Shown here: piece after piece, positions 2,770-4,999 of the stretch | Layout of the letters: each line of letters opens with the position of its first letter | Position numbering within the stretch: position 1 is the stretch's first letter | Source of the DNA: a virus | Taxonomy: Duplodnaviria > Heunggongvirae > Uroviricota > Caudoviricetes | DNA: 5,878 nt | IMG/VR virus record: IMGVR_UViG_2681813274_000006 | Reading direction: 5' to 3' (one strand) | Position numbers and translations under genes: made by a program | Notes under the pieces: model-generated | Seen by the model: the letters and a program-made list of their open reading frames with translations, nothing else | Told to the model about the DNA's origin: nothing | Databases searched by the model: none

Positions 2770-3027
2770 TTTACGATTTGGGGTTGCGACTTTACCTCTA
2801 TTGATAATGCATTCCGGCAGAACGTTCAAATATGAACGTACGATATTTAACTAACCGAAAAACAAAATATAGCACAGGCGAGACATTTACCATCTAAGAA
2901 AATAGTATCGTTTTTTTACAGTTAAATCAACATCTCTTCCTTAAAATGAAAACAATAAATTTCAATCCTGAAACATTTTATTTCAGCTTATNNNNNNNNN
3001 NNACGTGCTGCGGCATAATCCCAATGA

Positions 3028-3138
3028 TTACTCCCTGACAGGGTTCGTAGGCCACTCAATATCAGGTGCAGTTGATGTATCAACACGGTTCAGCAACACC
3101 CGATACTTTTTCTAGGCTTCCACCACCAGCACGACAAG
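3028..3138 (-). pseudogene. Second copy of the lambda-type tfa 3' end (about 27-35 codons), fused to the pin remnant
   Basis: Minus-strand translation of 3111-3028 gives [27 protein letters not shown]. It is about 90% identical at nucleotide level to 1575-1685 and is preceded by an in-frame TAG (3114-3112) where the other copy has TGG (Trp). Confidence 0.7.
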
Positions 3139-3354
3139 ATGCCGCATACAGTGCCCCAGTCAGTCCAGTTTTCAGACAACCAGTGCGTCACCTTTTTGAA
3201 GGCGCTTTAAAGCACGTTTTAATCCAGGTCGGCCTGTCCTTGTTCCGCTTAATTTATCTTCAAATATTTGTTCATATCCTGCACAAACAAGAGCGTTTCG
3301 TTGCAGGTCTGTATTCTGGTCATTTGTTGATACCCTTACATAGCCAATCAGCAC
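3139..3354 (-). pseudogene. pin: Pin/Gin/Hin-family serine DNA invertase, N-terminal remnant with in-frame stop codons
   Basis: From GTG 3354: (M)LIGYVRVSTNDQNTDLQRNALVCAGYEQIFEDKLSGTRTGRPGLKRALKRLQKGDALVV, then TGA (3174-3172) where Pin proteins have Trp, then KLD, a second TGA (3162-3160), then LGHCMRH. The catalytic-serine motif YVRVSTxxQ is intact. The remnant stops after about 70 codons instead of the roughly 185-190 aa of intact family members. Confidence 0.85.
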
Positions 3355-3408
3355 GCTGAATCTCCCGTCCAAAAGCACAAATCATGCCATGCAGGCCAGA
3401 AACCGCCA

Positions 3409-3434
3409 TTATCTAAAACCTCGGTTTACGAGAA
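3409..3434. other. gix/pix-type inversion crossover site
   Basis: TTATCTAAAACCTCGGTTTACGAGAA: 26 bp made of two imperfectly inverted 12-bp half-sites around a central dinucleotide. It closely matches the Gin/Hin/Pin crossover consensus as I recall it (TTATCCAAAACCTCGGTTTACAGGAA). It lies between the invertase start and the tail-fibre variable cassette, as in Mu and e14. Confidence 0.6.
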
Positions 3435-4193
3435 CTCGGCACAAGCGGGGAGAAAATACCGTTACTCAGTACAGCGAATACCTGGACTAATCGACAAACA
3501 TTCAGCGGTGGCCTTTCTGGTGAACTATCCGGCAATGCTTCTACAGCTGCAAAATTAAAAACTGCCAGGAAAATAAGCAATGTGGCTTTTGATGGTTCCT
3601 CCGATATCACATTAAAAGCAAGTCATGTTGGTGCGTTTGCCTTAGGGAAAACAGGAAGCACCGTTGCGAATGATAAAGCAGTTGGATGGAACTGGAGTAG
3701 CGGAGCCTATAACGCAACTATTAGTGGTGCATCAACGTTAATTATTCATTTTTATATGGGAGAAGGAAGTTGTCCTGCAGCTCAGTTTCGGATTAATTAT
3801 AAAAATGGCGGTATTTTTTATCGTTCAGCCCGTGATGGTTATGGTTTTGAAGCCGACTGGTCCGAATTTTACACCACCAGAAAACCTTCAGCAGGAGATG
3901 TTGGTGCACTGCCGTTATCTGGTGGTCAACTGAATGGTGCACTGGGTATCGGAACATCCAGTGCTCTTGGCGGTAATTCGATTGTATTGGGTGATAATGA
4001 CACGGGCTTTAAACAAAAAGGCGATGGTAATCTGGATGTTTATGCTAATAACGTCCATGTTATGCGCTTTGTCTCCGGAAGCATTCAAAGTAATAAAACC
4101 ATAAATATTACGGGACGTGTTAATCCCTCGGATTACGGTAACTTTGATTCCCGCTATGTGAGAGATGTCAGACTTGGCACACGAGTTGTTTAG
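3417..4193 (+). CDS. Tail-fibre C-terminal variable-domain cassette; promoterless, with the frame opening inside the crossover site
   Basis: The frame is open from the TAA inside the crossover site (3414-3416) to TAG 4191-4193 (259 codons). The track calls only the GTG at 3582. The product (...LLSTANTWTNRQTFSGGLSGELSGNASTAAKLKTARKISNVAFDGSSDITLKAS...) is Gly/Ser/Thr/Asn-rich like phage tail-fibre distal domains. There is no ATG or ribosome-binding site at the 5' end, consistent with expression only after inversion joins it to a constant region. Confidence 0.7.
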   Translation, partial: NLGLRELGTSGEKIPLLSTANTWTNRQTFSGGLSGELSGNASTAAKLKTARKISNVAFDGSSDITLKASHVGAFALGKTGSTVANDKAVGWNWSSGAYNATISGASTLIIHFYMGEGSCPAAQFRINYKNGGIFYRSARDGYGFEADWSEFYTTRKPSAGDVGALPLSGGQLNGALGIGTSSALGGNSIVLGDNDTGFKQKGDGNLDVYANNVHVMRFVSGSIQSNKTINITGRVNPSDYGNFDSRYVRDVRLGTRVV

Positions 4194-4345: not shown

Positions 4346-4999
4346 ATGCAGCATTTAAAAAACATTGTCGCAGGTAATCCAAAAACCGTTGAACAATACC
4401 AGCTAACAAAGAATTTTGATGTTATCTGGTTATGGTCCGAAGATGGAAAAAATTGGCATGAGGAATTAAAANNNNNNNNNNNNNNNNNNNNNNNNNNNNN
4501 NNNNNNNNNNNNNNNNNNNNNNNNNNNNNNNNNNNNNNNNNNNNNNNNNNNNNNNNNNNNNNNNNNNNNNNNNNNNNNNNNNNNNNNNNNNNNNNNNNNN
4601 NNNNNNNNNNNNNNNNNNNNNNNNNNNNNNNNNNNNNNNNNNNNNNNNNNNNNNNNNNNNNNNNNNNNNNNNNNNNNNNNNNNNNNNNNNNNNNNNNNNN
4701 NNNNNNNNNNNNNNNNNNNNNNNNNNNNNNNNNNNNNNNNNNNNNNNNNNNNNNNNNNNNNNNNNNNNNNNNNNNNNNNNNNNNNNNNNNNNNNNNNNNN
4801 NNNNNNNNNNNNNNNNNNNNNNNNNNNNNNNNNNNNNNNNNNNNNNNNNNNNNNNNNNNNNNNNGACTCTCAGCTACAGCTGGGCATCATTTCCGATGAG
4901 AATAAACAAAAATTAACCGAGTGGATGCTCTATGCGCAGAAGGTTGAATCCACAGACACCTCCAGCCTGCCAGTAACGTTTCCCGAACAACCAGAATGA
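4346..4999 (+). CDS. Tail fibre assembly protein (Tfa); interior masked
   Basis: ATG 4346 lies 2 nt after the preceding stop. The N-terminus [23 protein letters not shown] is paralogous to the minus-strand tfa, and the C-terminus ...[28 protein letters not shown] is Tfa-like. 393 nt of the interior are N-masked, so length and frame continuity are assumed. Confidence 0.75.

Follow-up and report, generated by a model that had tools for sequence, protein, structure and literature searches.

We analysed a 5,878-nucleotide (nt) stretch of Caudoviricetes DNA (IMG/VR record IMGVR_UViG_2681813274_000006), here called the window. It is what remains of a cryptic lambdoid prophage in Escherichia coli or a closely related species. 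At positions 3028-3354 a remnant of a Pin/Gin-type DNA invertase gene meets the 3′ end of a lambda-type tail-fibre assembly gene (tfa). This region is very probably the non-functional fossil of one old illegitimate recombination event, in which codon 77 of a pinE-type invertase gene was fused to the last 30 codons of tfa. Its flanks would later have been exchanged and its frame closed by nonsense mutations, while the adjoining tail-fibre switch would have continued to invert in trans.

One reading frame joins an invertase remnant to the end of tfa

A single minus-strand frame runs through the region. Translation of positions 3378-3003, which opens VLLDGRFSVLIGYVRVSTNDQ, passes from the N terminus of a Pin/Gin invertase through a TGA, KLD, a second TGA, LGHCMRHLVVLVVEA and a TAG into the 3′ end of tfa, reproducing exactly the string given by a first-pass annotation made from the letters of the window (pin, TGA, KLD, TGA, LGHCMRH, LVVLVVEA, TAG, tfa end). 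The premature stops lie at 3174-3172 (TGA), 3162-3160 (TGA, codon 65) and 3114-3112 (TAG), and the TAA at 3030-3028 is the natural end of tfa. Once its stops were repaired, the fused frame matched two Pfam families: Resolvase (PF00239, E 6.9e-22, residues 3-83, profile positions 2-91 of 145) and Caudo_TAP (PF02413, E 4e-12, residues 79-105, profile positions 104-130 of 131). The isolated 30-residue tfa fragment matched PF02413 with E 3.4e-13 (profile positions 105-130 of 131) and contains the conserved C-terminal Tfa motif. Both halves resemble their families far beyond chance.

To place the breakpoint, we aligned the minus strand with two invertase genes, K-12 pinE and the intact gin-like L004, and with a number of lambda-type tfa genes and longer tfa fragments. 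The invertase contributes the bases down to 3123 and tfa those from 3122 on, with ...GTGCTGGTGG on one side and TGGAAGCC... on the other. Across the joint the window reads ...ATGCGGCATCTTGTCGTGCTGGTGG/TGGAAGCCTAGAAAAAG (in longer form, TGGAAGCCTAGAAAAAGTATCGG after the joint); pinE is identical up to this point and lambda-type tfa is identical from it onward. K-12 pinE continues past the joint with AGGAGTTGCGCGAACGAGGC (the continuation of the parent invertase is listed as AGGAGTTG), while tfa genes have ...GAAACCTTGTTGC ahead of it and TGGAAGCCTGGAAAAAGTATCGG beyond (the sequence preceding the parent tfa is listed as CCTTGTTGC). The Pfam domain boundaries fit this position, and the tfa-only BLAST matches in 5426 complete E. 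coli genomes stop either at 3122 (100% identity) or at 3125 (one mismatch). Since the parental frames coincide (CTG GTG / GTG GAA GCC TGG), the fusion is in frame.

The three-way alignment bears out the first-pass proposal of a recombination joint that fuses a truncated invertase in frame to the last codons of a lambda-type tfa. Similarity to tfa does not end at 3111 but extends through the E-A-W codons to 3122. The breakpoint itself had been sought near 3130-3150, where both parents were thought to have L-x-x-L-x-E-like codons; the real site is 8-28 nt away. The HLVVLV codons (3140-3123), read as ambiguous between the two parents, are purely invertase-derived and identical to K-12 pinE. They seemed ambiguous because they are of the pinE type, not the gin type.

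The parents share just three of the four bases after the joint (xGGA) and two of the four before it. Clean microhomology is absent, and the pattern is what illegitimate recombination would be expected to leave. As in an illegitimate mosaic joint or fused pseudogene, the switch between unrelated parents is abrupt, occurs at one position and is the same in descendants. The joint lies 120 nt inside continuous sequence, clear of runs of N, and is replicated in complete genomes: a 73-nt query spanning it was at least 80% covered in 538 of the 5426 (~10%). Because the same junction is present in these 538 genomes, it is not an assembly artefact.

The fused gene is a three-part mosaic

Alignment divides the region into three parts, all on the minus strand. 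The 5′ part of the invertase remnant (3164-3354, codons 1-64) is gin/P88-type, with 182/191 matches to L004 against 134/191 to K-12 pinE and 132/191 to L018, a locus described below; its DNA is 93-95% identical to the invertase genes of Mu, D108, SfMu and P88. The 3′ part (3123-3163, codons 65-77, ending ...MRHLVVLV) is pinE-type, matching L018 at 36/41 positions, K-12 pinE at 35/41 and gin-type genes at 22/41. Its final 27 nt, GTATGCGGCATCTTGTCGTGCTGGTGG, do not differ from pinE. When the remnant was extended by pinE sequence and searched against the E. coli genomes, no intact invertase allele with this gin/pinE hybrid structure was found, the best full-length match being 85%.

The third part (3028-3122) is the 3′ end of a lambda-type, tfaD-like tfa, comprising the last 30 codons and the TAA. 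It matches a tfa fragment of strain 2 HS-C (L007) at 94/95 positions and is 98% identical to tfaD of the K-12 prophage DLP12 (DH5alpha). The window holds a second, independent tfa 3′ fragment, tfaX-like and followed by a hairpin, at 1581-1698 on the minus strand; the annotations of EC958 and K-12 DLP12 both call it a partial tail fiber assembly protein. The first-pass estimate that the two copies are about 90% identical (the second taken as 1575-1685) is confirmed: 3008-3125 and 1581-1698 align without gaps at 90% over 118 nt (family D1), with 86/98 matches in the coding part. In this alignment the TAG at 3114-3112 stands opposite TGG (VVEA-stop-KKY versus LLEAWNKY).

The joint appears older than the prophage copy in the window

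The same junction is present at no fewer than three chromosomal sites: at ompW (EC958, AST205, NCTC86), at bioA-ybhB, the lambda attachment region (E70, 63-2, L6-21), and at potB (O114:H49 strain 90-9280, and also L018). Its nucleotides are unchanged in all eight other aligned loci from these sites. We found it in no phage record; each matching phage shares just one part with the window, be it that of the invertase (3164-3440) or that of tfa (3003-3125). Used as a protein query, the stop-repaired frame recovered uninterrupted chimeras of 102-107 amino acids (aa) that have both Pfam domains and the joint LVVLV/VEAWKKY (P0001, P0002 and P0003; P0005 is shorter). These open chimeras are rare, each occurring in one or two contigs, and their invertase part is pinE-type throughout; assembly GCA_013071485.1 carries the open 107-codon form. 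The locus of P0001 is L018, which adjoins potB and has the same junction as the window at the nucleotide level. Because this junction occurs at three or more sites, and in L018 together with a wholly pinE-type invertase part, the joint appears to predate both the prophage copy in the window and its gin-type allele, and to have arisen once, in a pinE-type gene.

The tfa side also seems to have undergone flank swapping: the bioA-ybhB copies have another tfa tail (ending TGPIIE-stop), and downstream of it a diguanylate-cyclase gene replaces the methyltransferase module.

Other open reading frames (ORFs) that join an invertase N terminus to a Tfa C terminus have different breakpoints. They lie in L019 (1378-1686) and in L020 and L021 (7001-7330), and correspond to proteins P0039 and P0035. 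P0039 reads ...RHLVVVLDYIDAVTATDTSTAPDVIWPELPEA and lies in an e14/Mu-like tail module, while P0035 reads ...RSLTDSIDTAKAPDIEWPVSPE and is joined at a DT(S) patch common to Pin (SIDTS) and Tfa (RVDTS). Since chimeras with different breakpoints exist, pin/tfa gene fusions seem to recur.

Stops accumulated in a copy-specific pattern

Comparison of the copies assigns each stop to a set of loci. The codon-65 TGA (3162-3160), in the pinE-type part, together with the replacement of Arg-Ser by His-Cys, is found in seven of seven interrupted sister loci and at all three sites. The TGG-to-TGA change at 3174-3172, in the gin-type part, the TGG-to-TAG change at 3114-3112, in the tfa part, and a Cys27-to-Tyr change (TGT to TAT) are confined to the ompW-locus copies, the window included. 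The potB and bioA-ybhB copies retain TGG at both Trp codons, and the other tfa copy of the window has it at the second, which upholds the first-pass reading of the TAG as a second, independent Trp-to-stop mutation. The three ompW-specific changes (window positions 3276, 3172 and 3113, giving TAT, TGA and TAG) are all G-to-A on the coding strand, a sample too small to speak of mutational bias.

The remnant cannot be an active invertase, and no protein function is expected, because only ~77 of ~185-195 codons are left, three in-frame stops interrupt the fused frame, the DRLGRS motif is destroyed, and the alpha-E helix and helix-turn-helix (HTH) domain are missing. The region of the Ser10 nucleophile is kept (YVRVSTNDQ is readable, within the PF00239 match). 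The catalytic arginine motif is lost, as the window has D-stop-L-G-H-C where PinE and the open chimera P0001 have DRLGRS. The Pfam search of the stop-repaired frame gave no match to PF02796 (HTH), while intact homologues have both PF00239 and PF02796. The tfa part is likewise far from complete, with 30 codons compared to ~175-200 in a full-length gene that has its own start.

The adjoining tail-fibre cassette is found in both orientations

Next to the invertase start, at 3411-3436, lies an ix/gix-type crossover site, ATCTAAAACC TC GGTTTACGAGAACT, whose core, AAACCNNGGTTT, occurs without mismatch only once in the window. The site is homologous to an annotated boundary of the Mu G segment, and similarity to NCTC86 switches orientation there. 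The distal, inverted ix lies past the end of the window and is present in homologous loci (L001, L009 and L010-L012), completing the pair.

Within the gin-type part, two G-N13-C 15-mers on the minus strand (3333-3319 and 3284-3270) lie 49 base pairs (bp) apart, the nearer one ~98 bp from the centre of ix. The Hin enhancer lies ~100 bp from hix and has two Fis sites (PMC3798978); the Mu record contains no explicit enhancer (sis) annotation. We infer a putative recombinational enhancer here because of the position and spacing of the 15-mers and the identity of this part to gin, so that the retained 5′ part of the invertase gene would carry the Fis-dependent enhancer region. The part that still works is probably this cis-acting DNA, namely ix and the enhancer region that the 5′ third has kept.

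The invertible cassette (Sv-tfa / tfa′-Sv′) adjoins the remnant, which points away from it. In these respects the region resembles the Pin/Gin/Cin/Hin systems with invertible segments (e14 pinE with P, Mu gin with G, and the P88 type), which have an ix upstream of the gene, the Ser10 region and a likely enhancer in the first 100 codons. It differs from them in that its invertase gene is truncated and carries three stops, has D-stop-LGHC for DRLGRS, and is without alpha-E and HTH.

The cassette in the window is flipped relative to that in NCTC86 (window 3405-4471 matches L009 7400-6331 at 98.6%). We inverted the EC958 segment in silico between the centres of its two ix sites and looked in the genomes for the new joint that this predicts. 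It was found at 100% over 300 nt in 152 genomes, including ST131 strains JJ1886, JJ1887, JJ2434, MNCRE44, U12A and 4/0, while EC958, U13A, U14A, U15A, 4/1-1 and 4/4 have the opposite orientation at the same chromosomal position. Because both orientations share the dead remnant in near-clonal ST131, inversion seems to have continued past inactivation; the cassette presumably still inverts in trans, through invertases supplied by other prophages in the same genome.

Cross-complementation among pin, gin, cin and hin is classical. In ST131 wound isolates, reversible tail-fibre inversions were seen in three prophages, of which only two have an invertase (preprint 10.1101/2022.05.07.487787), and PinQ of prophage Qin flips the e14 segment in trans (PMC12529663). 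The ST131 loci resemble the latter case in that the segment, here beside a dead invertase gene and found in both orientations in near-clonal genomes, would be served by an invertase of another prophage. They differ from PinQ and e14 in that the adjacent invertase is permanently lost, so that the switch would depend wholly on other prophages.

Proposed history and alternatives

The history that we favour would begin in a lambdoid prophage lineage, where codon 77 of a pinE-type gene (...RSMRHLVVLV) became joined to the last 30 codons of tfa, in frame by accident. With this event the invertase would have lost its alpha-E helix, its DNA-binding domain and the remainder of its catalytic domain, and tfa ~85% of its length. 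The product would have been a 107-codon open chimera, a form still present in a few strains. In the lineage of the window, the DNA upstream of ~3164 (the 5′ end of the invertase gene, ix and the invertible tail-fibre cassette) would then have been replaced by gin/P88-type DNA through homologous recombination, using the conserved ...GGTGAC..CTGGTTGTCTGGAA.CTGGA... stretch, while other lineages would have exchanged the tfa tail and downstream module. The TGA at codon 65 would have followed, with the Arg-to-His and Ser-to-Cys changes in DRLGRS, and finally, in the ompW-locus lineage, the mutation of the two Trp codons to stops (TGA 3174-3172 and TAG 3114-3112). The order of these last three steps, from flank replacement onward, is our inference.

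How the joint formed allows more than one account. The first-pass annotation had the C-terminal two-thirds of the invertase, and whatever lay between it and tfa, removed by deletion, and the rest of the invertase is indeed gone at the joint. A deletion local to this very prophage, in which an intact pin was followed by other DNA and a complete tfa in the same orientation until one deletion took everything between them, is a possibility that we take seriously but think less likely than the older, shared origin. It would need only a single event, and to the right of the joint the lambdoid surroundings are the native ones (tfaD position, hairpin, methyltransferase): the tfa fragment sits relative to hairpin and methyltransferase as tfaD does in K-12 DLP12 and other prophages, with a 54-nt gap in both. 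But the same junction at three or more chromosomal sites, with a wholly pinE-type part in L018, places the event before this copy and its gin-type allele, so the deletion, if such it was, did not occur in this prophage or allele. Left of the joint, moreover, from ~650 nt inside the tail-fibre gene, the DNA is P2/P88/Mu-like, and beside the distal ix the constant tail-fibre part shares 89-92% identity with P2 gpH and with the tail fibre of P88. A block of this kind from the tail-fibre gene to the joint fits replacement by a foreign cassette equally well. Two single-event histories are therefore equivalent: a deletion in a prophage that had both blocks, or a crossover between two phages in which a foreign cassette replaced the C terminus of stf and most of tfa, including the tfa N terminus, with an illegitimate right end. 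Among phage records, the constant part of the tail-fibre gene matches phages of the P2/P88 type and Yersinia phage vB_YpM_39. The latter, which has baseplate genes, was rejected as an ancestor because unrelated genes lie downstream of its intact invertase.

That the invertase itself made the joint, by recombining ix with a pseudo-ix in a deletion or inversion, strikes us as scarcely credible, even though serine invertases now and then use secondary sites, pin and tfa are adjacent in many tail-fibre modules, and pin::tfa chimeras with other breakpoints exist. The sequence GGTGG/TGGAA at the joint is without the AAACC-NN-GGTTT core, a core search of the window found nothing ix-like there, and the one perfect core is that of the true ix, at 3416-3427. 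The breakpoint lies inside invertase coding sequence, not at ix, and the DNA past it is collinear with the lambdoid tfaD-hairpin-methyltransferase order, so no reciprocal inversion product is present. We also rejected an inversion between convergent tfa and pin genes, as arranged in Rac and Qin, which would likewise give a pin-N::tfa-C fusion: past the tfa stop the DNA is collinear with DLP12 and without an antisense invertase 3′ half. It is very unlikely, too, that the chimera of Pin(1-77) and Tfa(C-terminal 30) has or had a function as a small protein, for instance as a catalytic-domain fragment that tunes or interferes with trans-acting invertases, and was only recently inactivated in the window. 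The fusion is in frame, open versions of 102-107 aa are predicted in a few E. coli assemblies, and the 5′ third is kept in all 538 genomes. However, an in-frame joining has a one-in-three chance, the open versions are rare, each of the seven interrupted sister loci has the codon-65 stop, and the ompW copies contain three stops. The chimera also has neither the alpha-E dimerisation helix nor the HTH (Pfam positions 2-91 of 145; no PF02796), and cis-acting ix and enhancer DNA is a simpler reason for retention of the 5′ third.

Several points weigh against the history of an old pinE-type fusion followed by flank exchange and inversion in trans. A pre-joint ancestor with pin, spacer and tfa was not found in the genomes or phage records searched, leaving deletion and two-phage crossover indistinguishable. 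The stretch 3165-3146 (GAC TGA CTG GGG CAC TGT) has five differences from both parental types, more than its flanks, and drift is the sole explanation that we can offer. The chimeric frame remains open in a few strains, which leaves room for a small-protein function; the enhancer is assigned by homology and spacing; and the alternative cassette orientation may have been imported by recombination, since inversion in trans is deduced from comparing genomes.

Genomic setting

Homologous prophages lie between trpA/yciEFG and a truncated ompW in EC958 (ST131), NCTC86 and many other strains. There RefSeq lists, in order, ash, Rha, a DUF4376 fragment, a tfa fragment, a class I SAM methyltransferase, an incomplete tfa, 'recombinase family protein, incomplete' and a tail-fibre block consisting of a tail-fibre C terminus, tfa, a tfa on the opposite strand and a tail-fibre gene whose N-terminal domain resembles that of lambda Stf. 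The annotated DNA and joint in ST131 and other E. coli are the same as in the window, both halves being called partial, and the nr database contains the 102-107-aa 'recombinase family protein'. The RefSeq/PGAP annotation differs from our reading in that it has two separate, gapped pseudogenes, without the in-frame joint, the exact breakpoint or the mosaic origin.

The gene order also resembles tfaD-ybcY-tfaX of K-12 DLP12, with a tfa 3′ end, a hairpin, a convergent methyltransferase gene and a second tfa fragment with a hairpin in the same order. Unlike the window, DLP12 has a longer tfaD remnant (438 nt), which abuts a terminase fragment rather than an invertase fragment. The window differs in turn by its intact methyltransferase ORF and by a segment from upstream of ipaH, which encodes a type III effector, between the methyltransferase and the tfa fragment.

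A hairpin of the form CCGCAGCACGT ... ACGTGCTGCGG, which is probably a bidirectional terminator, occurs in three copies at the 3′ ends of the tfa fragments and the methyltransferase gene: complete at 1553-1586 and 2732-2764, and again at 3003-3013. At the last position the right arm, ACGTGCTGCGG, stands alone; the left one has either disappeared in the 11-N run at 2992-3002 or is concealed by it. In EC958 and K-12 DLP12 a single hairpin occupies the 54 nt that separate the stop of the methyltransferase gene from that of tfa.

The ipaH-upstream segment starts right after the right arm of the second hairpin, so that a hairpin arm stands on both sides of the insert. Positions 1889-2991 are 99.4% identical to the methyltransferase-to-ipaH region of enteroinvasive-type E. 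coli such as CFSAN029787, while 2765-2991 is absent from ST131 and NCTC86 and present in only 9 of the 5426 complete genomes, a rarity that may point to a Shigella or EIEC strain as the source. The segment contains a perfect MxiE-box-like GTATCGTTTTTTTACAG at 2905-2921 and ends 49 nt short of the ipaH start, at the 11-N run, beyond which comes the arm of the tfa hairpin. Here ipaH is either deleted or hidden in an 11-N assembly gap; the join of 2765-2991 to the tfa hairpin is unreadable across that run. Scans of genome contigs, with sequence spanning this run and with the form of the junction specific to the window, gave no match.

The window has four runs of N in all (135-529, 1816-1888, 2992-3002 and 4472-4864). 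A perfect 56-nt direct repeat, single-copy in EC958, flanks the 73-N run (1760-1815 and 1889-1944), which suggests overlapping contig ends (a k-1 overlap) joined in a scaffold; the alternative is a masked 129-bp tandem duplication. If the repeat is a scaffold artefact, all the N runs may be gaps of unreliable length, not masked sequence. A plus-strand tfa ORF (4346-4999) stays in frame across the 393-N run (4472-4864) and is 120 nt (40 codons) longer than its 98.6%-identical NCTC86 counterpart, which has 273 nt there, so that the allele carries an insertion of 40 codons unless the size given for the gap is unreliable. Finally, a 20-nt repeat at 10-29 and 610-629 (CAATAAGTTGGAGTCATTAC and CAATTAATTGGAGTCATCAC, 85% identical) lies near the window start, before the 395-N run, and upstream of a Rha-family start, respectively; this may be a translation-initiation or operator region of the ash and Rha genes that occurs twice.

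Significance

Much of this is ordinary decay. Hundreds of RefSeq genomes already list the two halves as partial pseudogenes, and a fused pseudogene in a decaying lambdoid prophage is a familiar thing. Our analysis adds the exact breakpoint at 3123/3122, the apparent single origin in a pinE-type gene, the three-part mosaic, the assignment of each stop to its copies, and the link to an orphaned, apparently still invertible switch. For annotation, the practical point is that what RefSeq gives as two partial genes side by side is a single fused pseudogene whose breakpoint is defined. The joint has little weight in itself, serving as a resolved example of how a lambdoid prophage is assembled, has its flanks reshuffled by homologous recombination and is eroded stepwise by nonsense mutations. 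Somewhat more interesting is that a tail-fibre host-range switch in ST131 seems to flip with its own invertase dead and hence would rely on the invertases of co-resident prophages. The retained 5′ third of the invertase gene may thus persist as cis-acting DNA, a crossover site and putative enhancer, rather than as a gene.

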